IMG/VR virus record: IMGVR_UViG_3300020036_004254
Origin: a virus
Lineage: Duplodnaviria; Caudoviricetes
DNA: 64,000 bases
Direction: 5' to 3' (one strand)
Shown: piece by piece, positions 2,762 through 63,155 of the stretch
How the letters are laid out: each line of letters opens with the position of its first letter
Numbering within the stretch: the first letter of the stretch is position 1
Notes under the pieces: model-generated
Databases searched by the model: none
Told to the model about the DNA's origin: nothing
The model's input: only the letters and a program-made list of their open reading frames with translations
Program-made: the position numbers and the translations under genes

Positions 2762-4656
2762 TGACTGACTTGCGCGTAACCGAACTAGATTTCGAGGCGA
2801 TTAAAACCAATCTTAAGAATTTCATGAGGGCACAGTCTGAGTTTTCAGACTATGATTTTGACGGGTCGGCGTTGAATGCGTTGTTAGATGTGTTGGCGTA
2901 CAACACCCACTATAACGCGATGTTGGCGCATTTGATGTCAAATGAAATGTTTATTGACACCGCTATCAAACGGTCGTCTGTCGTGTCTATCGCTAAAACA
3001 ATGGGGTACATCCCGCGTTCGTATTCGGCGGCAAGAGCTACAATCTCGTTAACCGTTCCTACAGACAGTCCACTTCCGATGACCGTGGACACCTCAACCA
3101 AATTCACCACCACCAAAAACGGAACTCCTTATACATTCAATGTTGAGGAATCGGTCACCGTCACCCCGGAAGCGATTAGCGGGGGATATCAGGCGGTGTT
3201 TCCAGAGGTGTTGTTGGTTGAAGGTACTCGTCTCCAAAATGCATTCACCGTGACGGCAGATAACCGACAGGGACCGTTTGTCATCCCCGTTGAAAATATT
3301 GATTTGTCAACCATCCGGGTTGTGGTGAAAACCTCTGCAAACGTGGAAGAATACACCGTGTTTACACGGTCGTTGACGGTTGTAGACGTTTCAGACACCA
3401 GTACCGTGTTTTGGGTAGAAGAGAATGCAGACGGGAAGTTTCAATTGATTTTTGGTGACGATGTCATTGGTGCCACGCTGGATGTGGGTAATATTGTCAC
3501 CGTGTACTATGTGGCGTGTAACGGGAGTACACCAAACGGGGTTCGCACGTTTACTCTTTCTGGTACAGTTGGCGGAACCTCTAATGTCACGATTACCACG
3601 GTTGATGTGGCTGGGGCTGGTGCGGAAAAAGAAACCATCGATAGCATTCGGTTTAATGCACCCAAGTTCAACAACACCAGAAATCGTGCGGTGACTGCTC
3701 AAGATTACAAGTCGTTGATTCTTGCAGATTCGAATATCAACTTCAAGGCCAATTCTATTTCCGTGTGGGGTGGAGAAGAAAACATCCCCCCGGTGTACGG
3801 AAAGGTCTTTATCACTATCGACCCAACAGATTCGTATCTTATCACGGATTCTGACAAAAAGTATATCATTGACCGAATTTTGCGTCCTCGAAGTGTCATG
3901 TCTATCCAACATGAGTTTGTAGACCCTGAGTTTATCTATTTGGGGTTTGATGTGGTCATTTCCTACAATGAAAACATCACCAACTTGTCTTCGACTGAGT
4001 TGACCGCGTTGGCACACGACCGTATCACAGAGTTCTTTTCTGAGAATCTCTCTACACTAGACCGAACCTTTTTCTTCTCACAGCTTGTTGATGCTATCAC
4101 CACCATCAACCCTGCCATTTTGGGTGTGTTGGTGAATATGCGTATTCAGAATCGTATTACAAAGCTGGCATCGTTTAACACAACCAAGAACCTTCGCTTT
4201 TTGGCTTCGTTAGAACCCGATAGCATTTCTAGTACAGTGTTTGTTTCTTTGGTAAACGGAATTTCGTACAACGCCTATATTAAAGATTTTCACGATGGCG
4301 TTATCAAAGACCCCACTGGGACTGGAACATTGAAGTTGTTGGAGGCGGACACCAACACCGTATTGGTGTCTGCATTGGGCACCGTTGACTACAAAACAGG
4401 CATTCTGTCCTTCTCAGATTTGAACATTTCTTCCTATCTGGGGAACATCACGGATGTTCGAATCAACGCCGTCCCACAGAGCCTTTCCAAGAACATTTCC
4501 CCCAGTGTGATTTCTGCAACCGAACAATCCACTAGCGCGGTGTTTCCGGCACCAGCAAAAAACATCATCATTGAGCTAGATGACAGCGAAATCAATACTG
4601 CTATCAAGCTAAACCCCGGGTTGAACATTACCACCATTCCGTTTAGCGAACTCTAA
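2761..4656 (+). CDS. gp6: Baseplate wedge subunit gp6
   Basis: '[12 protein letters not shown]...F.DYDF.GS.L..LLD.LAYNTHY' and 'RAVTAQDY...WGGEEN.PP.YGKVFI'. Confidence 0.95.
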
Positions 4657-7223
4657 TGTCTTCTTTCCGTCATAAGCTTCATCATTTTATTTCAGGACAA
4701 ATCCCGGATTACATCCGGGAGAACTATCCTATATTCGTATCTTTCGTTCAAGCCTACTACCTATTTCTTGAAGAAACGGGTGAGGCGAATGATGTGTTGC
4801 TGAACACGGATACGTGGATGGATATTGACCAAACGCTTGATGACTTCATTCCGCTGTTCCAAAAGCAGTACATGGGAAACATTCCCCAGAGTGCCATTGT
4901 TGACATCAAACGTCTTATTAAGTTTGTCAACGAATTTTACGAGGCCAAGGGGTCGGAAAACGGAACCGAATTGTTCTTCCGATTTATGTTTAATGATACC
5001 GCCAGTGTCAAATATCCGGGAGATAACCGTTTGGTGGCATCTGGTGGAAACTGGAAGCAACGAAAAAGCATCAAACTAGATACCGGAACGATTTCCACTG
5101 ACAACAACCCCTTCTTGATGAAGGGGCGAAAGATTTTTGTTGAGTATACCCTGTACGAAAATGGGGTGGGAAATGTTGTGTATCGGGTTCCCGTATCATG
5201 CCTTGATGTGGTTAAACTATCAGCACCAAACATTTATCGGTTGGATGTAGAACTATCAGATTCGGTCGTCTTCCCAGACACCGCGATTAGCACACACCCC
5301 TCCAACGAAGCGGAGACGGTGTACGACAGTCATTTGTATGTTTTGATGAATTTGACTTCTGACGAGGACATGCAGTTGGGTGTTGCCCCATCATGGAGTG
5401 CCTGTGGCACGTTGTCCAAGCAATTGGTAAGCATTAAGCGCATTGTAACTGGCGGAACAAACTTTCGTGTCGGTGAATCGTTTTATGTAAATGAAGGTGG
5501 AACCTCTGGTGAATATTTCGAGTTTGATGTGGATGTCCCGAGTGAATGGTATACATTAAACATTAGTGGAACCGACGCATATGTGTCTCCGTCACTCATG
5601 TTAAACAACGCCATCGTTCGTGTTCGGAATATTATTTCTGAGAATCTGGGTCCGTATTTTGCCCAGAACTACACGGTGGATTTGTTTGAAACATATACCA
5701 CCGAATCCAGAGATAGGCAAATTCGCCATCTTCAAATTGTTACTACAGGTCAGCGTTTTTCGGTTCGAGAATATTTCAACCCGAGATACTTCATTTCGTA
5801 TAGCGACCCGCTTGATGATTATTTGGCGGAATCAACCCCATCGTACAACTCGTATACATTTCCGATTGAGCTATTGGAAGATTCTGTTCCGGTCAGCGAA
5901 GTGAGTTTTGATTTTTACGCAAAAGATGCGGGTGAAATGGCCACGGTCATTTTTAACACGGGTTATGTGTATGTCGAACCCGGGCGTTATGTAGATAGCG
6001 TCAGTTTGTTGTCAGAAATGAATAAGTTGCAAGACAATTTCTTGTTTCAACCATATTCCTACACTGTCAAAACCCATCAGGGGTTTGATACGTGGAAAGA
6101 CGCATATACCAAATCAAATCACCCTGCTGGATTTATTCTTTTTGCCAACTTGAACATTGATGAGTTGACACCATTAGATGTTACGGTCGAATCGGTAGAT
6201 GTGGATGAAACGTTTGTTATTGTTAGCGCAACCCCATCTGTCACACCAACCCCGTCCATAACGTTAACACCGTCAGTTACCCCTTCGGTGACGCCGTCGA
6301 TTACACGAACCCCGTCGGTGACAGCTTCAGTTACCCCCACACCAACCCGCACTCCATCGATTACTGTCACCCCTTCGATAACACCAACTGTAACGGTAAC
6401 ACCGACCAGAAACGCTTCATCATCTGTGACGCCGACAGTCACCCCGTCGATTACCCGTACACCTTCGGTCACCCCGTCAATTACCCCATCGATTACCCGT
6501 ACACCTTCGGTCACCCCATCGATTACCGCTTCTACGACCCCAACGGTAACCCCGACGGCGACACGGGCCGCAACAGCTACTCCGTCTGTTACCCCATCGA
6601 TTACCCCAACGGTAACACGTTCGGTGTCGGTCACACCAAGTATTACCCCGTCAATAACCCCATCAGTTACCAGAACACCCTCGGTGACGCCGTCGATTAC
6701 ACGAACCCCGTCGGTGACACCGTCGATTACCCCGACTGTTACACCAACTCGTACTACATCAGCAACCCCTACCCCAACCCCTACCCCAACTGTTACCCCA
6801 ACTCCCACAATCACCACCATCTGTTATGTCACAGGGGATTTACTAACAGGCCCGGGTCAGGCATCATCAATTTTGGCGTGTGCATTGGGTGATACACTTG
6901 ATATTACAGTGTACACCGATGGTGCTTTGTTCTACAGTGATTTCCCGTGTAGTGGTGGGTTGGTCCTTGATGGGTATTACAAGACCGCTTCAAACGGTTG
7001 GATTCAGTACAGCGGTGGCTCTGTTATAAATAGTGGAAGTTGTGCTATCCCGCCAAGCCCATCAGTTACACCGACCCCGACCCCAACCCCTTCAGCGGGT
7101 TGCCCAGAGGTTGGAACTAATATTTGTCAGGGTATTGACTTGTACATTGCCGACGGTGCCTGTGGTTGGTCACAGATTTGCCCAGATAACATCGCTTGCG
7201 GTGGTACACAAAGTTGTTCATAA
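4656..7223 (+). CDS. gp7: Baseplate wedge initiator gp7-like, extended by a TPSV mucin-like stalk and a Cys-rich C-terminal module
   Basis: '[17 protein letters not shown]', 'FYEAKGSE....FFRF.F' and 'LQDN..FQ.YSY...HPAG' gp7 motifs; follows gp6; ~190 aa S/T/P repeat followed by a Cys-rich tail. Confidence 0.8.
6228..6810 (+). repeat. Coding (TPSV/TPSI)n repeat in gp7
   Basis: Visible in the translation; degenerate 12-nt period in the DNA. Confidence 0.95.
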
Positions 7224-32814: not shown

Positions 32815-34893
32815 ATGTTTTTTGATGGTGGGTTTTTTTTCGACGGTAACGGAACAACCCCCCTTGATTATGAGGGGTTGTTGCCGTTAGAAGACGCGAT
32901 ATCACCTTCTCCGTCCCCAACCCCGACCGTCACCCCAACAATAACTCCATCGATAACCCCCTCTTCAAGTGAAGGGGGGGCACCGTCTGTTACCCCTAGC
33001 GTTACCCCATCAGTAACGAGTACCCCATCCGTTACACCTTCTGTTACTCCAAGTGTTACGCCATCGGTTACTCCGTCGGTCACACGCACCCCCAGTGTTA
33101 CTCCATCGGTGACACCGAGTATTACACCGAGTATTACAGCAACACCGTCGGTCACACCGTCTGTAACTCCGTCGGTGACACCGAGTATTACAGCAACACC
33201 GTCAGTCACCCCTTCTGTAACGCCGTCGGTCACACCGAGTATCACAGCAACACCGTCGGTTACACCTTCTGTTACTCCGTCGGTCACACCAAGTATTACG
33301 GCAACCCCGTCTGTTACTCCGTCAGTAACACCGTCGGTCACACCGAGTGTCACCCCTTCTCAAAGTGTTGCGGCTGAACCATCGGTCACGCCTTCTGTTA
33401 CGCCAAGTGTCACATCAACCCCTTCTGTAACACCGTCGGTCACTTCAAGTGTATCCGTAACGCCGAGTGTTACACCAAGCATTACCCCATCGATTACCCC
33501 GTCGGTCACTAGTACGTCAAGTGTCACCCCATCTGTAACACCAAGTATTACTTCAACACCGAGTGTCACCCCATCTGTGACACCATCGGTCACCCCGAGT
33601 GTCACAGCAACACCGTCTGTCACACCGTCGGTAACCCCGTCTATTACACCAAGTGTTACCAGAACACCGAGCGTTACACCAAGTGTCACACCGAGTATTA
33701 CGTCGAGTGTCACCCCAACGGCATCAATCACCCCAAGCATTACCCCATCGATTACCCCGTCGGTCACTCGTACACCGAGTGTCACCCCATCGGTGACACC
33801 ATCGGTAACTCCTAGCATTACGGTAACATCAAGCGTTACACCAAGTGTCACACCAAGTATTACACTTTCAACATCATCGACCCCATCAGTAACCCCGTCG
33901 ATAACACCAAGCATCACCAGAACCCCAAGTGTCACGCCAAGTATTACATCAAGCGTGACACCAACGGCATCAGTCACCCCATCTGTCACCCCGAGTATCA
34001 CTCCGTCCGTTACTCGCACACCGAGTGTCACCCCAAGTATCACTTCATCGGTTACCCCGTCGATAACACGGACCCCGTCTGTTACAGCGTCGGTCACGCC
34101 TTCAATCACAGCCAGTGTCACCCCAAGCGTCACCCCGTCCGTTACCCGCACCCCGTCTGTTACGGCGTCGGTCACCCCAAGCGTTACCCCAAGCGTTACC
34201 CCATCGATTACCCCGTCTGTCACTCGCACCCCGAGTGTCACCCCAAGCATCACAACGAGCGTCACCCCATCAATTTCTTCGACGGCGTCGGTCACCCCAA
34301 CACCGTCGGTCACCCCATCGATAACCCCATCGGTTACCCCAAGTATCACAGTTTCGGTCACCCCATCAATCTCTTCGACTGCATCGGTAACACCGAGTAT
34401 CACCCCTTCAATAACAGCTTCAGTTACCCCGTCGGTGACTGCGAGTGTCACCCCGTCAGTTTCCGTCACACCAACGCCAACCGCGTCGGTGACCCCAAGT
34501 ATTACCCCAACCGTTACCGCCACACCGAGTATTACCCCCTCAATAACATTAAGTGTTACACCAAGTGAAACACCTTCTGTTTCGGCAACACCGTCTGTCT
34601 CAACAACCCCTTCAGTCACCCCGTCTGTTACCCCAACCGTTACCCCAAGTATCACCCCAACGGTTACTCCGTCTGTCACGCTCACCCCATCGATTACCCC
34701 GTCTACATCAAGTTTTTCTGAACCACAGTTTGTCCCGGTCAAACTAGAAGAATTGTTGAATGTCGATGCATTGACCCATGGGTTAGACGATGATTTTTCT
34801 CTTGTATATGACGAGGAAACACAAACATGGAAAACCAAGAGTATTCGGGATATTCGAATTCAAACTCTAAATGTCGATGGCGGCAGTTTTTAA
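32815..34893 (+). CDS. Mucin-like protein: ~600 aa of (TPSV/TPSI)n with a short C-terminal putative anchoring domain
   Basis: Translation is almost entirely S/T/P/V/I. The C-terminal ~55 aa are paralogous to ORF 31158 and end DGGSF. Confidence 0.8.
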   Translation: MFFDGGFFFDGNGTTPLDYEGLLPLEDAISPSPSPTPTVTPTITPSITPSSSEGGAPSVTPSVTPSVTSTPSVTPSVTPSVTPSVTPSVTRTPSVTPSVTPSITPSITATPSVTPSVTPSVTPSITATPSVTPSVTPSVTPSITATPSVTPSVTPSVTPSITATPSVTPSVTPSVTPSVTPSQSVAAEPSVTPSVTPSVTSTPSVTPSVTSSVSVTPSVTPSITPSITPSVTSTSSVTPSVTPSITSTPSVTPSVTPSVTPSVTATPSVTPSVTPSITPSVTRTPSVTPSVTPSITSSVTPTASITPSITPSITPSVTRTPSVTPSVTPSVTPSITVTSSVTPSVTPSITLSTSSTPSVTPSITPSITRTPSVTPSITSSVTPTASVTPSVTPSITPSVTRTPSVTPSITSSVTPSITRTPSVTASVTPSITASVTPSVTPSVTRTPSVTASVTPSVTPSVTPSITPSVTRTPSVTPSITTSVTPSISSTASVTPTPSVTPSITPSVTPSITVSVTPSISSTASVTPSITPSITASVTPSVTASVTPSVSVTPTPTASVTPSITPTVTATPSITPSITLSVTPSETPSVSATPSVSTTPSVTPSVTPTVTPSITPTVTPSVTLTPSITPSTSSFSEPQFVPVKLEELLNVDALTHGLDDDFSLVYDEETQTWKTKSIRDIRIQTLNVDGGSF
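32901..34710 (+). repeat. Longest coding TPSV repeat tract (~1.8 kb)
   Basis: Degenerate 12-nt period with highly varied synonymous codons. Confidence 0.95.
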
Positions 34894-38193: not shown

Positions 38194-40449
38194 ATGAAAA
38201 GACCAAATCGTTCTTCCACTCTTGTATCGACAGGAAGTCCAAAGACTATATTCCCAAAAATAAACGTCTCCGACATTTTCGTTGACGGTGAATGGTATTT
38301 GTACCCATCGGCAACCCCAAGTCCCACCCCGTCAACTACTGTGTCAGTGTCGGTGTCAGGAACACCAACGCCTACAACAACCCCTTCAATGACGAGAGGG
38401 GCATCACCATCGGTTACCCCGTCAGCCACCCCTTCTATTTCTGTTTCTACAACACCGACTCCAACCGCCTCGGTGTCGTTGACTCCATCACGAACCCCGT
38501 CAGTGACTCCGTCGCGTTCAGCGTCCCCGTCTCCATCCGTGACCCCGTCGATTACACCTTCAATTACGCGAACCGCGAGTGTGACACCATCGGTGACGCC
38601 TTCTATCACGGTTTCTACGTCTGTCACCCCGTCGGTTACGCCTTCGATTACGCGAACCGCTTCTGTCACGCCGTCAATTACTATTACCCCATCGATTACA
38701 CCGTCTGCCACACGAACCCCATCCGTAACACCAACCGCGACACCAACTCCGACACAAAATGCGTCGGTTTCAGTGACGCCGTCCGTAACGCCTTCGATTA
38801 CGGTTTCTACGTCTGTCACCCCGTCCGTAACCCCGTCGATTACGGTTTCTACGTCTGTCACCCCGTCGGTGACGCCTTCGATTACGGTTTCAAGAACGCC
38901 TTCCGTCACACGCACCCCCTCAATCACACCAAGTGTTACACGGTCGGTGACCCCGTCGGTGACTCCGTCCATCACAAGAACACCATCGGTCACACCATCG
39001 GTCACACCATCAATAACGGTATCTCGGTCGGCAACACCATCCGTGACGCCATCCGTTACCGCTTCCGTGACGCCATCGATAACGGTTAGCCCGTCGGTCA
39101 CGCCGTCAATCACCCCATCGATAACGGTTAGCCCGTCGGTCACACCGTCGGTCACGCCATCAATAACGGTTTCGAGAACACCATCGGTGACCCCATCCAT
39201 CACCCGTTCGGTGTCAGTAACACCAACTCCGTCGATAACACGTACTCCGTCTGTTACTCCATCCATCACACCGTCTATCACTCGCAGTGTATCAGTCACG
39301 CCGTCAGTGACCCGCACCCCAAGTGTTACTCCAACCGTTACACCAACAGCAACCATCACAACTATTTGTTACGTGACCGGAATGGTGTTGACTGGTCCGG
39401 GTCAAGTATCATGGGATGCCGCCTGTGCATTAAGTAGTACAGGAGATACGACCGTTTATACAGATGGGGTATTGTTTTATAGTGACTTCCCATGTAGTGG
39501 TGGGTTAGTGCTAGACGGATATTACAAGACGGTTGATAACGGGTGGGTATATTACATTAACGGTGTATATACTGATAACAATACCTGCGGTGTCGCACCA
39601 TCCCCATCACCCACCGCTACACCATCAATCACCGCCACTCCATCGGTGACTCCATCCATCACCCCAACCCCGTCGGTGACACCATCGGTGACCCCGTCGG
39701 TGACACCATCGGTGACCCGTACCGCGTCGGTGACCCCGTCTGTGTCACAGACACCTAGCGTTACGCCAAGCATCACCCCTTCTATTACCCGCACACCATC
39801 GGTAACCCCGTCGGTAACCCCGTCGGTAACCCCGTCGGTAACCCCAACCGTTACACGTACATCAAGTGTGACTCCATCGGTAACCCCGTCGGTAACCCCG
39901 AGTATTACGAGAACACCGAGCGTCACACCAAGTATTACCCCTTCAACAACCAGAACTCCTTCTGTGACACCAAGTAGAACACCTTCTGTCACACGTACTC
40001 CATCGATAACCCCAACGGTCACCCCAACGGCCACCATCACCACTATTTGTTATGTGACTGGTGCATCTTTGACTGGACCGGGACAAGCATCATCGGCACT
40101 CGCGTGTGCATTGAGCGACACGCTGGATATTGAAGTATATACCGATGGGGTGTTGTTCTACAGCGACTTCCCGTGTAGTGGTGGGTTGGCTCTAAATGGA
40201 TACTACAAGACGGACGCCAATAGTTGGGAGCGATATGTGTCTGGTGAACTTATAAGTACTGGTAGTTGCGTGATTCCGCCGTCACCGTCCGTCACCCCAA
40301 CAGTGACCCCAAGCGCATCAGCAGGGTGTCCTGATTTTGGGACAAATATTTGTCAGGGTATTGACTTGTACATTGCTGATGGTGCCTGTGGCTGGTCGCA
40401 AATCTGTCTGAACAACACCGCGTGTGGCGGTACTACAGAATGTTCTTAA
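38194..40449 (+). CDS. Mucin-like protein D: related N-motif, two TPSV stalks, two copies of the gp7 Cys-rich module
   Basis: N-terminus 'MKRPNRSS...SDIFVDGEWY'; two 'ITTICYVTG...GPGQ...AC...[10 protein letters not shown]' modules; same terminal '[25 protein letters not shown]' as gp7. Confidence 0.75.
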   Translation: MKRPNRSSTLVSTGSPKTIFPKINVSDIFVDGEWYLYPSATPSPTPSTTVSVSVSGTPTPTTTPSMTRGASPSVTPSATPSISVSTTPTPTASVSLTPSRTPSVTPSRSASPSPSVTPSITPSITRTASVTPSVTPSITVSTSVTPSVTPSITRTASVTPSITITPSITPSATRTPSVTPTATPTPTQNASVSVTPSVTPSITVSTSVTPSVTPSITVSTSVTPSVTPSITVSRTPSVTRTPSITPSVTRSVTPSVTPSITRTPSVTPSVTPSITVSRSATPSVTPSVTASVTPSITVSPSVTPSITPSITVSPSVTPSVTPSITVSRTPSVTPSITRSVSVTPTPSITRTPSVTPSITPSITRSVSVTPSVTRTPSVTPTVTPTATITTICYVTGMVLTGPGQVSWDAACALSSTGDTTVYTDGVLFYSDFPCSGGLVLDGYYKTVDNGWVYYINGVYTDNNTCGVAPSPSPTATPSITATPSVTPSITPTPSVTPSVTPSVTPSVTRTASVTPSVSQTPSVTPSITPSITRTPSVTPSVTPSVTPSVTPTVTRTSSVTPSVTPSVTPSITRTPSVTPSITPSTTRTPSVTPSRTPSVTRTPSITPTVTPTATITTICYVTGASLTGPGQASSALACALSDTLDIEVYTDGVLFYSDFPCSGGLALNGYYKTDANSWERYVSGELISTGSCVIPPSPSVTPTVTPSASAGCPDFGTNICQGIDLYIADGACGWSQICLNNTACGGTTECS
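39799..39845 (+). repeat. 12-bp perfect tandem repeat (tcggtaaccccg) x~4
   Basis: Directly visible; encodes SVTP x4. Confidence 0.9.
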
Positions 40450-51523: not shown

Positions 51524-52831
51524 ATGTATCTAATCGAAGAGAGTAAGCTAGACACTCGTTGGGCACCAGTTCTTGAGAACGCGAAGTTCGCCCCGATTAC
51601 TAGCCAGTACCGTAAGGACGTAACGACCATCGTTCTTGAAAACCAGTTCCGCGAAGCTCGCGCACAGGAACAGATGTTGAACGAAGATGCACCAGCGAAC
51701 AACATTTCGGCTTCTGCCGGAATTGATAAGTATGACCCCATTCTTATCTCGCTTGTCCGTCGTTCACTTCCGAACTTGATGGCGTATGACATTTGCGGCG
51801 TTCAGCCGATGACTGGCCCAACAGGTTTGATTTTCGCGTTGAAGAGCAAGTACGGCACCGACCGTAGCAATACTGGTTTGGAAGCGTTGTTCAACGAAGC
51901 CGATACTGATTTCTCAGGTACAGGCACACACGCTGGTTCTAACCCTGTGGACGGTAACCCGTACACCACTGGTACTGGATTGGCAACTGCTGATGCCGAA
52001 GCTTTGGGCACAGGTGGTTCAGGTGGCTCATTCGCTGAAATGACTTTCAGCATTGAGAAGACTTCAGTCACCGCGTTGTCACGCGCTTTGAAGGGTGAGT
52101 ACACCATCGAATTGGCACAGGACTTGAAGGCGGTCCACGGTGCTGATGCCGAAGGCGAGTTGTCAAACATTCTTTCGCAGGAAATGCTTGCGGAAGTGAA
52201 CCGTGAAGTCGTCCGTACCATCTACAAGGTTGCAAAGGTTGGTGCCGCTTCTACCGCAGTACCGGGAACGTTCAACCTTGACGTTGACTCAAACGGTCGT
52301 TGGAGCGTGGAGCGTTTCAAGGGCTTGATGTTCCAGATTGAGCGTGACGCAAACGTTATCGGCCAGCAGACTCGTCGTGGCAAGGGTAACTTCATCATCG
52401 TGTCGGCTGACGTTGGCTCGGCATTGGCGATGGCAGGCAAGTTGGATTACGCAACTGGCTTGACCAACAACCTTGAGATTGATGACACAGGTAATACCTT
52501 TGCAGGTGTGTTGAACGGTCGCTTCAAGGTCTTCATTGACCCGTACAGCGCGAACATTTCAGCCGCCGCACAGTTCTACGTAGTTGGTTACAAGGGCAAG
52601 ACCCCGTATGACGCTGGTATCTTCTACTGCCCATACGTACCGCTTCAGATGGTTCGTGCGACTGACCCGAACAGCTTCCAGCCGAAGATTGGCTTCAAGA
52701 CCCGTTACGGCATGGTCAGCAACCCATTCGTCACCACGAACGGTTTGCAGACAGGAACTCCTGACGCAATGACCTTCACCGCTGGTGCCAACCAGTACTT
52801 CCGTAAGGTCAAGGTTTCGAACCTGATGTAA
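51524..52831 (+). CDS. gp23: Major capsid protein gp23
   Basis: 'DP.LISLVRR..PNL.AYD.CGVQPMTGPTGLIFA', 'ELAQDLKA.HG', 'GRWSVE.FKGL' and 'FYCPYVPLQMVRA....FQPKIGFKTRYG'. Confidence 0.99.
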   Translation: MYLIEESKLDTRWAPVLENAKFAPITSQYRKDVTTIVLENQFREARAQEQMLNEDAPANNISASAGIDKYDPILISLVRRSLPNLMAYDICGVQPMTGPTGLIFALKSKYGTDRSNTGLEALFNEADTDFSGTGTHAGSNPVDGNPYTTGTGLATADAEALGTGGSGGSFAEMTFSIEKTSVTALSRALKGEYTIELAQDLKAVHGADAEGELSNILSQEMLAEVNREVVRTIYKVAKVGAASTAVPGTFNLDVDSNGRWSVERFKGLMFQIERDANVIGQQTRRGKGNFIIVSADVGSALAMAGKLDYATGLTNNLEIDDTGNTFAGVLNGRFKVFIDPYSANISAAAQFYVVGYKGKTPYDAGIFYCPYVPLQMVRATDPNSFQPKIGFKTRYGMVSNPFVTTNGLQTGTPDAMTFTAGANQYFRKVKVSNLM

Positions 52832-56545: not shown

Positions 56546-56972
56546 GGACGATGGAGAGGAGTTTTTTAAGGTCATTCGCTTAAAGACCGGAGAAAACATC
56601 CTCTGCACCATGAGCCGAAACGTTACCTCGGTTGCGTCTGAATCCTACCTTACGTTACACAAGCCTGTGTTGGCGGTGTTGCACAAACAGATGACTAAGG
56701 CAGAGAGTGTTGTGGGAGAGCTATTCCTTCTGCGTCCGTGGATTGGGTGTAGCAATTCCACCGATTTTGTTATGCCCACAGACATCATTTTGACGATGGG
56801 TGACCTTACAAAAACAATGAAGTTCGAATATCTTAAATATTTGGAAGAGTTGGAGGATGCACAAAAATTCATCGATAGGGAAGAGGATGAACGCGCCATG
56901 AACACGGCGATTTACAACCTGTTGACCGATGTCAACCCGGGTAAGCCGATTCATTTTCTTAATGATAACTAG
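56502..56972 (+). CDS. Hypothetical protein (Sm-like fold?) between uvsW and gp55
   Basis: 'KVIRLKTGE.I.....L..P...L.PW' pattern typical of this locus in T4-like phages. Confidence 0.6.
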   Translation: MKSHFPTESSPSPFRDDGEEFFKVIRLKTGENILCTMSRNVTSVASESYLTLHKPVLAVLHKQMTKAESVVGELFLLRPWIGCSNSTDFVMPTDIILTMGDLTKTMKFEYLKYLEELEDAQKFIDREEDERAMNTAIYNLLTDVNPGKPIHFLNDN

Positions 56973-56979
56973 GAGATAT

Positions 56980-57528
56980 ATGAAAAAGGAACGGATTCAT
57001 TATATAGACAATGAACGATTTTTGCAAGAGTTAAAGAAGCATGGGGTTGCAGTACGACGGGCGAAACGATTGAAACAAGAACTCCCGCTTCTCTCCGAAT
57101 ATATTGGAGAATGTTTTATCAAAATCGCCACCAATATGGCACACCGCCCAAACTTCAATAATTACACATTTCTTGATGAAATGATATCAGACGGCATAGA
57201 AAACTGTTTGATTTATGTCAACAACTTTAGTCCAAAGAAATCTACCAATGCCTTTGCTTATTTTAGCCAGATTGTGTGGTATGCTTTTATTCGGAGAATA
57301 CAGAAAGAAAAGCGTCAACTCAACACCAAGTATCGATACATCGAAACATTGGGCGTCGAAGACATCATTCGGCAAGCCCATGACGAGGGTGAATACGAGA
57401 CGCCTTACATCGATTATTTGAAGAATCAAATAACCCAAGCTAGTGTGGAATTGGGTGAACAGCGGGAAAAGGCCCCCGAAATGACAAAGCGGCCTAAATA
57501 CATGACCAAGGCTAAAAAAACCAAGTGA
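56980..57528 (+). CDS. gp55: Late transcription sigma factor gp55
   Basis: 'HY.DN..F', 'YIGECF.KIA......PNF.NY...EMI.DGIENC..Y..NF.P.KS.N.FAYF.QI...AF.RRI.KEK.Q'; RBS AGGAG before ATG 56980. Confidence 0.97.
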   Translation: MKKERIHYIDNERFLQELKKHGVAVRRAKRLKQELPLLSEYIGECFIKIATNMAHRPNFNNYTFLDEMISDGIENCLIYVNNFSPKKSTNAFAYFSQIVWYAFIRRIQKEKRQLNTKYRYIETLGVEDIIRQAHDEGEYETPYIDYLKNQITQASVELGEQREKAPEMTKRPKYMTKAKKTK

Positions 57529-58066: not shown

Positions 58067-58492
58067 ATGAAACCAGCTTCTTTTTCCAAGACTTGTGGTG
58101 CGCCATTTCGGTGCATCTTCAGAGATTACAAGACAAATGGCCCCCTTTCGGGTCATGCGTTGTATGTAACGTTGAAGTTTGTCTGTGCATATCCGAGTGC
58201 GATGTCACACGACGATTTGGAACAATTTGTGTTGAACGATACGCAGTGGGCCAATCAATATTTGGAAGAACTGTTGACTGACACCGTTCTGATTTCTCGG
58301 TTTGACCCTCTTGGAAACGTCATTATCATCATGGAAACGGAGTCATTGATTGACGTTCGGTTGATGGATGACGTATCGCTTGAAGGGTTGTCCAAGATGA
58401 TTAAGGAGGACTTTTCTCTCATGCTAAACCAAAAAACAGAGGGTGTTGTGGAACTGGCTGGCGTCGAGGTTCTTGAGGCTACGTTTGCATGA
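58067..58492 (+). CDS. Divergent QueD/6-pyruvoyl-tetrahydropterin synthase-like (T-fold) protein, apparently lacking metal ligands
   Basis: Overall pattern 'SKT.G....C.FR...G.A...F...YLE....T.L....DP...L.D.R.MD.V..E...VEV.E' resembles QueD-like proteins, but HG is SG and DH is TD. Confidence 0.45.
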   Translation: MKPASFSKTCGAPFRCIFRDYKTNGPLSGHALYVTLKFVCAYPSAMSHDDLEQFVLNDTQWANQYLEELLTDTVLISRFDPLGNVIIIMETESLIDVRLMDDVSLEGLSKMIKEDFSLMLNQKTEGVVELAGVEVLEATFA

Positions 58493-59544
58493 AGATTGCC
58501 ATTGTAACCGACACACACTTTGGGTTGCGCGGGGATTCGGAGGCGTTTGATAACGCCGCCCGTCGATTTTTCACAGACCAATTCTTCCCATACTTAGAAG
58601 AACATGACATTCAAGAAGTGTTTCATTTGGGCGACTTGTTTGATAGGAGAAAGTTTGTAAACTATCAAACGTTGCATAACTGTTTTGAATATTTCAACGG
58701 CCCTGTATCAGATTACGGATTACGTATCATTCCCGGAAACCACGATGTGTATTACAAAAACACCAATCGGGTCAATGCCATTCATTTGTTGTTGGGGAGT
58801 GACTATGACTATGATTCAAAGTACGTGATTTTCACACCAAAAGAGCTTGTAATGGGTGGAAGAAAGATTGCGATGATTCCATGGGTCACGGAAGACAATA
58901 GGGAAGAAACACTCAAGTTTCTTGAGAAAACTGACGCAACCGTGTGTATGGGCCATTTTGATATTGTTGGGTTTAAAATGACCAACGGTCAAGTGTGCGA
59001 ACATGGGTTTGATGCATCGATGTTCAGTAAGTTTGATTTGGTCTTGAGCGGACACTTTCATCATAAGAGTCACAAGGGAAACATTCATTACTTGGGCTGT
59101 CCTTACGAGCAAACGTGGGATGATTTTGGGAGTGATAAAGGATTCCACGTTCTGGACACGGATACGTTGGAGTTAGAGTTTATCAAAAATCCCAATGTCA
59201 TGCACAAGAAAATTCACTATGATGACTCTCAAGACCAGAAGATTGACGCAAAACAGTACAAGGGGTGTATGGTCAAGATAGTTGTGGTGAATAAAACGGA
59301 CTACAAAAAGTTCGATGCATTGGTTGAAAAGCTGTATGTCGCGGGTGTGCTGGATTTGAAAATCATTGAAGATTTGATTGACCTAGAGGGGTTGACTTCT
59401 GATGACACCGAGGTTAACTTGGAAGATACTGCCAGCATTCTATCCGACTACATTGATGACGCTGATATTTCTTTGGAGAAATCACGACTCAAGGTTTTAA
59501 TGAGAACGTTATATATTGAAGCACAAAATGTGGAGAACATATAA
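58489..59544 (+). CDS. gp47: Recombination nuclease gp47 (Mre11/SbcD-like)
   Basis: 'TDTHFG.R.D', 'HLGD.FDRRK', 'GNHD.YYKNTN', 'SGHFH' and 'YLG.PY...W.D'. Confidence 0.97.
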   Translation: MKIAIVTDTHFGLRGDSEAFDNAARRFFTDQFFPYLEEHDIQEVFHLGDLFDRRKFVNYQTLHNCFEYFNGPVSDYGLRIIPGNHDVYYKNTNRVNAIHLLLGSDYDYDSKYVIFTPKELVMGGRKIAMIPWVTEDNREETLKFLEKTDATVCMGHFDIVGFKMTNGQVCEHGFDASMFSKFDLVLSGHFHHKSHKGNIHYLGCPYEQTWDDFGSDKGFHVLDTDTLELEFIKNPNVMHKKIHYDDSQDQKIDAKQYKGCMVKIVVVNKTDYKKFDALVEKLYVAGVLDLKIIEDLIDLEGLTSDDTEVNLEDTASILSDYIDDADISLEKSRLKVLMRTLYIEAQNVENI

Positions 59545-61899
59545 GTGATTAACTTTACAACCCTACGTTTCAAAAACTTTCTGTCGTCGGGGAATGTATT
59601 TACGGAAATCAAGTTCGATGAACACCCCACCAATCTTGTGGTGGGGAAGAACGGCGCAGGAAAATCCACTATGTTGGATGCCTTGTGTTTCGTTCTGTTT
59701 GGCAAGCCATTTCGCAACATCAATAAGCCACAGTTAGTGAACAGCGTCAACCAAAAGGCGTGTGTGGTTGAAATTGAGTTTGTGGTGGGTAAGCGGCAAT
59801 ACAAGATTGTGCGTGGGATTAAGCCCAATCTCTTTGAAATCTATCAAGATGGCGTTCTGATTGACCAAGATGCCGCGTCAAAGGATTACCAGAAGCACCT
59901 AGAAGAGAACATTCTAAAGTTGAATTTCAAGTCCTTTACCCAGATTGTGATTTTGGGTGTGGCTTCGTTTACGCCGTTCATGGAACTTTCGGCGGCTTCC
60001 CGCCGAGAAATCATTGAAGATATTCTGGATATTAGAATCTTCACGGTGATGAACAATCTCTTGAAAGAGAAGGTGTCGGACCTCAAGGATGCTTTGAATA
60101 CCCTTGAGGGTGACTTGAACATAAATATAGCCAAGACGAAGCTTCAAGACAACTACATCAAGTCCCTGCAAGCGGATAGGCAACAGCGCATTGATGAGTT
60201 GAATCAGAAGATTGCCGAGGCCGAACATGACATCAGAGAAAAAGACGTTCATATCAAATCTTTTGCGGAAGATAGAGACAGGTTATTGGATATTCTTGGT
60301 GATACTTCTGGTCTGCGATTGGAAATTCAGGAAATTCATGCGTCGATTCGAGACTTGGAGAAAGAGAAGAAGTCGCTAACATCCTTAGCGGAGCTTTCCA
60401 AGAATCATACCCTCTGTCCGGTGTGTGTAATTCATCCGGACTTGTTAGAAGTCAATGCCAAAATTCGGGATTTGAACAAGGAGTACAATGCAATTCCAAC
60501 CTTGACAGAGAAGTACATCAACTGTCCGGTGTGTTCTACTTTGCCAGCGATTTTGGACTTGGATGCAACAATTCGAGATTTGACGAGAAAAGAAACGTCT
60601 GCGAATCAGGCAATGGCTCTTCCAGAGGAATATACTGCTTGTAAAAGCTGTTCGGTTCTCCCTGAAATACTAGAGATTACCGCAACAATTCGGGACTTGG
60701 AGAAAGACAAGATAAACATCACGAAGACCTGTGGGTTTTATACGGACCATACCACGTGCCCGACCTGTCAACAAGACATCAGTGAAGAGTTGCGTCAAGA
60801 CCATGTTGCGGAGTCAAACAAAAAGATTGATGATATCACCACCACGATAGTTGAGCTTGTTGCTCGGCGTAAAACGTTGGGGGAAACGGCGCATACCGAA
60901 CATCAGGCGCGAGTCAAGCGTGAATATGATGAAACGGTCTTGGGGCTGACTGAGGCAGTTGTGGAACGAGAAAAGTTGGGTTCGGTATCACACCAACTAC
61001 ATGTCAATTCGGTTGAACAACATCGCGCCGATATCACGCAAATAATTCAGGTGTGTAATACGGAGCGTGACAAGATTGGTGAGAATCTCCACCGAATTCA
61101 TACAGAGGAAGTAACCCTACGTCACACCACTATTGATACGTCATTAGAAGACCTGACCACCAAACTTCAAGAGAAGAAAGTGGTGTCGGATAAGGTAGAG
61201 AAACAGGAGGGAGAGATTGCACTCTTGACTAACAAGATTTCCTCGCAGAATAGTGAAAAGCTTGGGCTTCAGCGGTTTATGGAAACTCTCGTCAAAGAGA
61301 AGTCTGAGTTGGAGAAAAAGGGAGGCAACATTGAAGAGGAGAAGGCCAAGCTTCGTACTATGGCATCTGAAGTGTTGACCATGACTTCAAAGAAGGCTGA
61401 ACTAAAGGAAGAGAAAGATTATCATGATGTGGCGGTGACCTTGTTGAAGGATGGTGGTGTTAAGACTCGTATCATCAAGCAATACCTTCCAGCCATCAAT
61501 CAGATGGTAAACAAGTATCTTCACGCTATGGATTTCTTTGTATCCTTTGAGTTGAACGAACAGTTCAGCGAGACTATCAAATCTCGCCACCGGGACGAGT
61601 TCAGTTACGAGAGCTTCAGTCAGGGTGAGAAACAGCGTATTGACTTGGCCTTGGTCTTCACATGGCGCACCATTGCAAAGATGAAGAATAGTACCAGCAC
61701 CAACCTTTTGATTTTGGACGAGGTGTTCGACAGCAGTTTGGATGCAGATGGAACGGATTACGTAGTAAATCTTCTGAAGGTCATTGGGGAACAGACCAAT
61801 GTATGGGTTATCTCACACAAGCCTGATATCATGGCGGATAAGTTTAGTAACGTACTACACTTCGTGAAAAAGAACAATTTCTCTGTTTTGGAGCGATAA
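59545..61899 (+). CDS. gp46: Recombination ATPase gp46 (Rad50/SbcC-like) with an expanded coiled coil
   Basis: 'KNFLS.GN', Walker A 'GKNGAGKST', CPTC hook, 'FS.GEK.RIDLA' and 'LDEVFD.SLD'; three extra CxxC repeats. Confidence 0.97.
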   Translation: MINFTTLRFKNFLSSGNVFTEIKFDEHPTNLVVGKNGAGKSTMLDALCFVLFGKPFRNINKPQLVNSVNQKACVVEIEFVVGKRQYKIVRGIKPNLFEIYQDGVLIDQDAASKDYQKHLEENILKLNFKSFTQIVILGVASFTPFMELSAASRREIIEDILDIRIFTVMNNLLKEKVSDLKDALNTLEGDLNINIAKTKLQDNYIKSLQADRQQRIDELNQKIAEAEHDIREKDVHIKSFAEDRDRLLDILGDTSGLRLEIQEIHASIRDLEKEKKSLTSLAELSKNHTLCPVCVIHPDLLEVNAKIRDLNKEYNAIPTLTEKYINCPVCSTLPAILDLDATIRDLTRKETSANQAMALPEEYTACKSCSVLPEILEITATIRDLEKDKINITKTCGFYTDHTTCPTCQQDISEELRQDHVAESNKKIDDITTTIVELVARRKTLGETAHTEHQARVKREYDETVLGLTEAVVEREKLGSVSHQLHVNSVEQHRADITQIIQVCNTERDKIGENLHRIHTEEVTLRHTTIDTSLEDLTTKLQEKKVVSDKVEKQEGEIALLTNKISSQNSEKLGLQRFMETLVKEKSELEKKGGNIEEEKAKLRTMASEVLTMTSKKAELKEEKDYHDVAVTLLKDGGVKTRIIKQYLPAINQMVNKYLHAMDFFVSFELNEQFSETIKSRHRDEFSYESFSQGEKQRIDLALVFTWRTIAKMKNSTSTNLLILDEVFDSSLDADGTDYVVNLLKVIGEQTNVWVISHKPDIMADKFSNVLHFVKKNNFSVLER

Positions 61900-61900
61900 T

Positions 61901-62494
61901 ATGTATAATCAACGTGAGGTGGGTGCTTACATTCCCCCACAGAAGTTCTCTGTAGAGGGGCTTGACTTCGACCGTCTCTCCCTAGTACCTTTCGATGATG
62001 AAAGACTGACCACCCCACCACCCGAGTTCGATTTTGAGCAAGATGGGGTCCACGCCGAAACATTGGCTAATGGGATGTTCAAAACCATGTTGAAGTTTGG
62101 TGGGGTGGGACTATCTGCGAACCAGATAGGTCTGCCGTATCGGGTATTTGTGTTTGGTGGTAAGGATGTCCAACTAAACATCTTTAACCCAAAAATCGTT
62201 GGGGTATCCAAGGAAACGGTGGTTATGGAGGAGGCGTGTTTGTCTCTCCCGGGGTTCTCCTTGAATCTAAAACGCCCAACAGAAGTCACTGCATCCTACC
62301 AGAATGTAAGTGGAGAAGTTGTCGTATCTAAGTTTGTGGGTCTTGGGGCAAGAATATTCCTTCATGAATATGACCATATGGAAGGCGTGTTGTTTACTCA
62401 GTGGGCATCATCGTTTAAAATGAAACGGGCGGTAAATAAGGTCAAAAAACGCATCAAGAAGTTTGAGAGAAACAAACTCAACAATGAGAGGTAA
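61901..62494 (+). CDS. def: Peptide deformylase
   Basis: Motifs 'GVGLSANQIG', 'EACLS' (EGCLS-like) and 'HEYDH'. Confidence 0.92.
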   Translation: MYNQREVGAYIPPQKFSVEGLDFDRLSLVPFDDERLTTPPPEFDFEQDGVHAETLANGMFKTMLKFGGVGLSANQIGLPYRVFVFGGKDVQLNIFNPKIVGVSKETVVMEEACLSLPGFSLNLKRPTEVTASYQNVSGEVVVSKFVGLGARIFLHEYDHMEGVLFTQWASSFKMKRAVNKVKKRIKKFERNKLNNER

Positions 62495-62498
62495 CTAC

Positions 62499-63155
62499 AT
62501 GGATGAAGAGGAACAGTACATGAGCGGTTCACGAAATAATATGTTTGTCGGGAAGACGTTAAGCCAAATTCATAAGCTGTACATTTCAGGGTCTATCAAA
62601 CAACCTGAGGAGTACATTGACATGTTTGAAGTCATTCGTAATGCGGGAGAAAACGACATCATTTATCTGCATATCAATTCAGAGGGTGGGAGTTTATTCA
62701 CCGCGATTCAGTTTCTTCGAGTGTTGGGTGAAACAAAGGCTATGGTTATCGCCTCTGTGGAAGGAATGTGTATGAGTGCCGCAACCATCCTCTTTATGGC
62801 GGCAAAGAACCACGAGATTACCAACCACTCTATGTTCATGTTTCATAACTACTCCAACAAGGTTGAGGGTAAGGGTGGAGAGTTACACGACCACATCACC
62901 TTTGCGAAAGAATGGGGAGAAAAGCTCTTGCGTGATGTATATTCCAATTTCCTCACCGAGACAGAAATTGTGAAGATTCTAGACGGTAAAGATTTGTACA
63001 TGACGAGTGAAGAGGTGGCACAACGTCTTGAGAAACGAAATGCAGAAATTCAAAAGCTTGTGGAGTCGAAGAATTTGGTTGTGGCGGAAGAACCGAAAAA
63101 GAAGCCTCGGAAGAAGAAAGTTCTCATTTCACATCGTGACGGAGTGGCCGCATGA
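62499..63155 (+). CDS. clpP: ClpP-like serine protease subunit
   Basis: 'LHINSEGG', 'G.C.SAA..LF.A' (catalytic Ser), 'MFH' and 'D.Y.T.EE'; GAGG RBS before ATG 62499. Confidence 0.8.
   Translation: MDEEEQYMSGSRNNMFVGKTLSQIHKLYISGSIKQPEEYIDMFEVIRNAGENDIIYLHINSEGGSLFTAIQFLRVLGETKAMVIASVEGMCMSAATILFMAAKNHEITNHSMFMFHNYSNKVEGKGGELHDHITFAKEWGEKLLRDVYSNFLTETEIVKILDGKDLYMTSEEVAQRLEKRNAEIQKLVESKNLVVAEEPKKKPRKKKVLISHRDGVAA

Follow-up and report, generated by a model that had tools for sequence, protein, structure and literature searches.

The gp46 gene of an uncultured T4-like myovirus (Duplodnaviria; Caudoviricetes), carried on a 64,000-nucleotide stretch of DNA (IMG/VR record IMGVR_UViG_3300020036_004254; this whole stretch is referred to as the window), encodes a 784-amino acid (aa) Rad50/SbcC-type ATPase, P0001, in which the antiparallel coiled-coil arm bears a series of CxxC motifs on its outgoing strand and a matched series of HxxH motifs on its return strand. 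In the known Rad50 hook, two molecules join through a single Cys4 zinc site at the tip of their antiparallel coiled coils. In the 784-aa protein, three further CxxC and three HxxH units are set around such a hook. This expansion of the arm is real, and the conservation of the Cys and His residues argues that it is under selection. Observed here were the repeats and their insertion around the ancestral hook, the linked copy numbers of the two motifs, the conserved ligand residues, the pattern of secondary structure, and the phase of the His along the return helix; from these we infer metal binding, Cys2His2 pairing within the chain, and a bracing role in the arm.

The sequence-only reading had described four ‘A.IRDL...CxxC’ repeats on the outgoing arm and three 33-aa ‘R.(K/T)(L/I)G...HxxH’ repeats on the return arm, within a segment at positions 60319-61110 that corresponds to aa 259-522 of gp46, and both descriptions hold. 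The CxxC sites are at aa 291 (CPVC), 327 (CPVC), 366 (CKSC), and 405 (CPTC) and the HxxH sites at aa 450 (HTEH), 483 (HQLH), and 516 (HRIH), with no other copy of either motif in the whole protein. Each CxxC follows 23-24 residues after an IRDL (aa 268, 307, 343, and 382), and the CxxC are spaced by 36, 39, and 39 residues, while the return units keep a spacing of exactly 33 aa and carry R.(K/T)(L/I)G four residues ahead of each HxxH. Measured from the apical CPTC, the distances to the CxxC and the HxxH at successive levels are near-symmetric (39/45, 78/78, and 114/111 residues). Shuffling the protein 20,000 times gave a mean of 0.17 CxxC and 0.58 HxxH; the probability of at least four CxxC was <5e-5 and that of at least three HxxH was 0.017, and both counts together occurred in none of the shuffles.

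A HMMER search of 1.84 billion representatives recovered 16,158 relatives of gp46, and Cys and His motifs were counted in the best 150 of these together with 120 relatives from a word-indexed search (~270 proteins). Nearly all of the ~270 are about 560-575 aa long, with one CxxC (the CPTC hook) at ~aa 291 and no central HxxH series, and the earlier statement that T4 gp46 is much shorter than 784 aa agrees with relatives of ~567-575 aa. In a MAFFT alignment, where the closest ordinary relatives reach up to ~70% identity overall, the single hook of the relatives (FY..H..CPTC.Q.I) falls on the fourth CxxC (aa 405) of the 784-aa protein, which identifies that CxxC as the ancestral apical hook. Of the 213 additional aa, 114 precede the hook (three units on the outgoing arm) and 99 follow it (3 × 33 on the return arm), as anticipated in the suggestion of a symmetric expansion of both arms.

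The three extra outgoing units are recognizable duplicates of the segment that precedes the hook (I.DLEK.EK ... FY..H..C..C), and after each of them a short Pro-containing linker (P.ILE-type) opens the next helix. At the level of DNA, repeat finders applied to gp46 detected faint traces of these events, as 49-nucleotide copies with 61-76% identity, and the duplications are therefore old rather than recent. Eight other relatives (595-708 aa) have lengthened their arms independently with plain coiled coil, retaining one hook and possessing no Cys/His series, and the ligand pairs are therefore no by-product of length itself. The insert contains Cys and His at two to three times their frequency in ordinary arms. 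As a separate observation, the length of the gp46 arm is evolvable in this phage clade, with proteins ranging from ~570 to 784 aa; P0010, P0011, P0179, P0055, P0106, P0110, P0136, and P0148 each keep a single central hook, and the independently lengthened forms amongst them span 623-708 aa.

One relative, P0156 (718 aa, 60% identity over the full length, found on two syntenic T4-like contigs), possesses three CxxC (aa 291, 330, and 369) and two HxxH (aa 414 and 447). The pair distances from its apex are 39/45 and 78/78, which is the same geometry with one module fewer per strand. Taken with the ordinary relatives and the 784-aa protein, the CxxC/HxxH counts therefore form a series of 1/0 (~270 relatives), 3/2 (P0156), and 4/3 (the 784-aa protein); a search of homologues for such covarying counts had been proposed with the sequence-only reading and, when run, found the counts linked. 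A script check of 78 fetched loci identified one CxxC and no HxxH in 76, with the remaining two possessing a second CxxC near the N-terminus.

P0001 and P0156 are 91% identical in both head halves versus 35% in the expanded region, where all of the shared ligand residues are kept (10/10), five of them through synonymous codon changes. Amongst the five return units of the two proteins, which have pairwise identities of 12-29%, the sole invariant columns are the two His, and amongst the seven outgoing units the sole invariant columns are the two Cys. Expanded gp46 is rare, and the collections searched yielded two lineages of it. When the repeat regions of P0001 and P0156 were used as queries, word-indexed protein searches returned just the same phage and ordinary single-hook gp46, no further expanded form was found in scans of IMG/VR with each repeat region and with their alignment or in one metagenome scan, and the 90% cluster of the 784-aa protein contains near-identical copies only, with no informative variation.

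Along the return helix, hydrophobicity recurs with a period of 3.64 residues (3.70 in P0156), which matches the 11/3 hendecad period of straight two-helix pairing; in the head-proximal arm the period is ~3.5. Because 33 residues equal three hendecads (3 × 11), all of the HxxH point the same way. Set out with 11 residues to a row, the return helix has its His in columns 4 and 7, positions that hold I, V, L, or Y in the other rows. When the hydrophobic moment is calculated without the His, the His pairs of both P0001 and P0156 lie astride it, and the pair centers are within ~35 degrees of that moment, except for the third pair of P0001. Based on this placement inside the hydrophobic stripe, the His pairs stand in for core residues where the return helix packs against the other strand.

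A full-length AlphaFold2 prediction without an alignment was unusable (mean predicted local distance difference test (pLDDT), 38.9; predicted template modeling score (pTM), 0.19). Prediction of aa 255-545, with the P0156 fragment as the sole second row of the alignment, had a mean pLDDT of 89.1 and a pTM of 0.57. In this model, the outgoing strand is divided into four helices (aa 256-284, 298-316, 334-357, and 373-401) with one extra CxxC in each of the three intervening loops, and is followed by the hook turn (aa 402-413) and by a return strand consisting of one unbroken helix (aa 414-544). The outgoing strand thus has 101 helical and 45 loop residues, and the return strand has 131 residues, all helical. 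Given these lengths and the helical rise, the two strands would be equal in length (~196 Å) if each loop spans ~15 Å, and at that span the CxxC loops would face return-strand aa ~443-452, 477-486, and 506-515, segments that coincide with, or come to within a few residues of, H450/453, H483/486, and H516/519.

The model was matched against structures in PDB with Foldseek and VIA-align. Short two-helix hairpins superpose on the model with a root-mean-square deviation of 1.5-3.2 Å and end at model residues 112-118 and 196-201, a region in which C366/C369 are model residues 112/115 and H450/H453 are model residues 196/199. Longer hairpins end at model residues ~69-79 with 234-244 and ~24-35 with 252-266. 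Both the arm-length arithmetic and the hairpin ends suggest that the CxxC loops are about level with the HxxH, in line with the initial proposal that each extra CxxC lies opposite an HxxH. The matches to PDB were generic antiparallel coiled coils, including SMC, MukB, and cohesin arms and the Rad50 hooks 1L8D and 5GOX (the P. furiosus Rad50 zinc hook and the human rod-shaped hook, respectively), with no comparable metal-lined arm amongst them, a result that does not show that none exists. Feature and shape searches of the ESM Atlas returned generic hook or phage Rad50 arm clusters.

ESMFold2 was also used to predict the arm without its apex, as two chains (aa 255-400 and aa 425-545) plus three Zn, which gave weak support for their pairing (0.55 in 3/3 runs; best of three controls, 0.00), with at least 97% contact agreement and a partner pLDDT of at least 88. 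In the calibration, which included no small molecule, 51 of 78 solved complexes attained the mark of the split arm, as did 2 of 108 mismatched pairs, and the results at ≤0.60 included five of those 78 complexes and all four of the passing mismatches (of 180). As the two chains are the halves of one coiled coil, the pass may partly reflect a likeness to solved antiparallel coiled coils, and the result adds little beyond the specific pairing of the strands being predicted.

In the best explanation, the gp46 arm was lengthened beside its zinc hook by three modules. With each module, the outgoing strand gained ~36-39 residues, composed of a Pro-capped IRDL helix and then a loop ending in a copy of the hook CxxC, and the return strand gained exactly 33 residues, equivalent to three 11-residue turns of straight helix and carrying an HxxH. 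The outgoing strand is broken in the model at each extra CxxC, and each CxxC loop would sit at the height of an HxxH on the core-facing side of the return helix. One Zn2+ would be held jointly by the loop and the opposite HxxH (Cys2His2), so that the two strands of a single molecule are joined. Three such internal staples would lie below the ordinary apical hook, which would still pair two gp46 molecules, and the arm would be ~15 nm longer (99 helical residues × 1.5 Å), its register held despite three breaks in one strand. This arrangement would account for the three tolerated breaks, the in-phase His in the core, the counts that differ by one, and the Cys and His as the sole invariant residues. 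Intramolecular Cys2His2 zinc staples, as put forward in the sequence-only reading, are the best and most economical reading of the sequence and the model, and are probably what the arm contains. We also lean, by a slight degree, towards the broader claim that the protein is a natural modular zinc-stapled antiparallel coiled coil, built in ~5 nm steps by nested duplication of the hook region, with one Cys2His2 zinc per module and a predicted 3.5 Zn per chain (2.5 in the 718-aa relative).

Several points weigh against the staples. Linked counts would also be expected if the arms only had to stay equal in length, with each outgoing duplicate inheriting its CxxC, and what separates function from relic is the conservation argument alone, drawn from two lineages. 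As a spacing of zinc ligands along an unbroken helix, HxxH (i, i+3) is less common than HxxxH, and the third His pair of P0001 is ~70 degrees off the hydrophobic moment (local window). Further, the match of the hairpin ends is loose for the second and third staples, which are off by about 5-10 residues, and the AlphaFold2 confidence for aa 255-545 derives from an almost single-sequence input.

It is unlikely, in our estimation, that the extra CxxC and HxxH instead bind metal across two gp46 protomers of a rod-shaped dimer (CxxC-CxxC’ with HxxH-HxxH’, or CxxC-HxxH across chains) and so zip the arms together below the hook. The ancestral CxxC does act between molecules and the extra CxxC are its duplicates, but a like-with-like zipper does not require matching levels of Cys and His, and His4 zinc sites are rare. 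The linkage of the counts and the conservation fit contacts between molecules equally well, and known Rad50 dimers include rod-shaped forms that make contact below the hook, 5GOX being amongst the structural matches; the position of the His pairs argues the other way, as they sit inside the single hydrophobic stripe that an antiparallel coiled coil buries against its own partner strand, and the monomer fragment is predicted to fold at pLDDT 89 with its CxxC loops against the return-helix region.

Less probable still is a relic that binds no metal, where duplication would have lengthened the arm and left the CxxC copies behind, with the HxxH arising by chance or serving some purpose other than metal binding (for example, pH-sensitive packing). 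A longer arm does not call for metal sites, since other relatives lengthen the arm without a Cys/His series, and just two expanded lineages are known, yet the units are old (5-61% pairwise identity) with 14/14 Cys and 10/10 His intact. All eight of the non-hook ligand positions are conserved at 35% regional identity (naive chance ~2e-4), five of them with synonymous changes, and the enrichment of His and Cys in the insert likewise argues against a relic. Equally improbable is that the extra CxxC are further working hooks or Cys4 pairs within one arm (giving alternative apices, alternative arm lengths, or higher-order tethering) with the HxxH incidental, for although the units clearly duplicate the pre-hook segment, including FY/Y..C..C, each internal CxxC is followed by a Pro-capped helix in the same direction and not by the return sequence of a true hook (.Q.IS.E), and H..H as the sole invariant feature of the return units is left unexplained. 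Cys4 pairing of consecutive CxxC was rejected, as P0156 has an odd number of CxxC (three) and the scheme is inconsistent between the two proteins.

By every sequence-level defining feature, the 784-aa protein is a member of the gp46/Rad50 family. It matches SMC_N (2.7e-19) and AAA_23 (1.1e-17), both above the cut-off, and AAA_29 in Pfam, as well as PHROG 77, ‘SbcC-like subunit of palindrome specific endonuclease’ (4e-173), and its heads match solved Rad50/SbcC head structures in PDB (E, 7e-12 to 2e-8). The head is of the split ATP-binding cassette (ABC) type, with an N-terminal Walker A and a C-terminal signature, Walker B/D-loop, and H-loop (Table 1). Between the head halves is an antiparallel coiled coil with an apical CxxC (CPTC, aa 405-408, in the AlphaFold2 hairpin turn), and the gene adjoins that of an Mre11/SbcD/gp47 phosphoesterase, with the same gene order in the P0156 contig. 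The GTG start of gp46 (59545) comes directly after the gp47 stop (gp47 end, 59544). The Pfam family Rad50_zn_hook had no match to gp46 at E ≤ 0.01.

Table 1 Coordinates of gp46, its repeat units, and neighboring genes in the window
Feature	Position	Strand	Details
Major capsid protein gene	51524-52831	+	Among structural genes, upstream
Late sigma factor gp55	56929-57528		T4-like replication/late-gene block
Rv2179c-like exonuclease gene	Between gp55 and gp47		T4-like replication/late-gene block
gp47/Mre11/SbcD nuclease partner gene	58489-59544	+	351 aa; Pfam Metallophos 2.4e-13; PHROG 100 ‘SbcD-like subunit’ 1.6e-107
gp46/Rad50/SbcC-type ATPase gene	59545-61899	+	784 aa (P0001), GTG start; from open reading frame (ORF) list, Pfam, PHROG, and PDB matches
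Walker A P-loop GKNGAGKST	59644-59670	+	aa 34-42, read from sequence
Outgoing unit 1 (aa 262-300)	60328-60444	+	ASIRDL helix, loop, CPVC aa 291-294 (60415-60426); AlphaFold2 helix 256-284, then CxxC loop
Outgoing unit 2 (aa 301-336)	60445-60552	+	AKIRDL helix, loop, CPVC aa 327-330 (60523-60534); AlphaFold2 helix 298-316, loop; counterpart missing in P0156
Outgoing unit 3 (aa 337-375)	60553-60669	+	ATIRDL helix, loop, CKSC aa 366-369 (60640-60651); AlphaFold2 helix 334-357, loop
Outgoing unit 4 with ancestral apical hook (aa 376-413)	60670-60783	+	ATIRDL helix, FYTDHTT, CPTC aa 405-408 (60757-60768), QQDIS; aligns column-for-column with relatives’ hook
Return unit 1 (aa 430-462)	60832-60930	+	33 aa; HTEH aa 450-453 (60892-60903); P0156 keeps His pair (H414/H417), synonymous codon changes
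Return unit 2 (aa 463-495)	60931-61029	+	33 aa; HQLH aa 483-486 (60991-61002); P0156 keeps His pair (H447/H450)
Return unit 3 (aa 496-528)	61030-61128	+	33 aa; HRIH aa 516-519 (61090-61101); P0156 without counterpart, also without one outgoing unit
ABC signature SQGEK (aa 692-696) to Walker B LLILDE (aa 721-726)	61618-61722	+	From sequence; invariant in relatives’ alignment
H-loop SHK	61813-61821	+	aa 757-759, read from sequence
Peptide deformylase gene	61901-62494	+	Between gp46 and gp45
ClpP-like protease gene	62463-63155	+	Between gp46 and gp45
Sliding clamp gp45 gene	63445 onward		T4-like replication/late-gene block

The T4-like replication/late-gene block that holds gp47 and gp46 (Table 1) includes peptide deformylase and ClpP-like protease genes, and the P0156 contig likewise has these two genes after gp46. 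No Pfam or PHROG match was found for a 141-aa ORF (58067-58492, + strand) that separates gp47 from the Rv2179c-like exonuclease gene, and the P0156 contig has a 147-aa ORF in this position. Identity between the major capsid protein and those of cultured phages is no higher than 62%, with the best matches to Methylophilales phage Melnitz and Pelagibacter phage HTVC008M, followed by Synechococcus phages, and at ~62% identity to its best cultured matches the phage is therefore placed in an uncultured branch of marine/freshwater T4-like myoviruses. Elsewhere in the window, tandem PS(V/I)TP-type repeats make up much of three large ORFs of the structural module (32815-34893 and 38194-40449, and the C-terminal half of 4656-7223; all + strand), including a 692-aa ORF that is ~80% Thr, Ser, Pro, and Val. 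These ORFs coincide with patches that are rich in guanine plus cytosine (GC) and have a strongly negative GC skew, and with long spurious antisense ORFs, and the repeat regions look like mucin-like spacers in tail-fiber or baseplate-distal proteins.

Arm length, arm stiffness, and the zinc hook are central to how Mre11-Rad50 and SMC-type machines sense and tether DNA, and their part in it is still debated. The matched series of gp46 proteins (1, 3, or 4 hook-type units; 91% identical heads) offers a test of the effects of arm length and rigidity, and the locus illustrates how evolution can expand both strands of a hairpin in step. If the internal staples are real, this would be, to our knowledge, the first protein of the Rad50/SMC type to carry metal sites within its arm and would provide a ready-made natural design for metal-dependent rod stiffness or length. 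The staples would then represent a new way to keep an antiparallel coiled coil in register across strand breaks, of interest to metalloprotein chemists and protein designers, and would tie the activity of a phage repair/recombination nuclease to the supply of zinc.

A full-text literature search for Rad50 with several CxxC or with His partners, and for Cys2His2 sites within SMC-type antiparallel coiled coils, found nothing comparable. The sites do not fit the classical Cys2His2 (beta-beta-alpha) finger (C-x2-4-C-x12-H-x3-5-H, ~25-30 residues), as 84, 156, and 225 residues separate the Cys pairs from their putative His partners and the His spacing is x2, and a Pfam scan of gp46 found no match to a zinc-finger family; they may share the ligand set of the classical finger without being a member. 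In treble-clef-type sites, composed of a zinc knuckle plus a helix, the CxxC turn gives two ligands and the helix two more, and ligands at i and i+3 on one helix face are an established arrangement (e.g., ExxH of ferritin-like diiron proteins). Compared to such knuckle-and-helix sites, the ligand halves in gp46 are 84-225 residues apart and on opposite strands of the coiled coil.

Amongst the known systems, the nearest are T4 gp46 and the cyanophage-type gp46 (PHROG 77) with their gp47 partners, which are alike in their heads, in the gene pair and its order, and in the apical FY..H..CPTC.Q.I hook, but ordinary members have one CxxC and no HxxH series, whereas the 784-aa protein has an additional 213 residues forming three CxxC and three HxxH units around the hook. 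The SMC, MukB, and cohesin arms, with their elbow and joint, were among the best structural matches and are likewise long antiparallel coiled coils with one or both strands interrupted at set places; unlike those of the 784-aa gp46, their breaks are not periodic, do not originate from duplication of the apex, and are not lined with metal-ligand pairs. The Rad50 zinc hook 1L8D resembles the apex of the model (Foldseek probability, 1.00; template modeling score by target, 0.58), and whereas the Rad50 hooks (1L8D and 5GOX) have one intermolecular Cys4 site, the 784-aa protein has three further putative intramolecular Cys2His2 sites along its arm.

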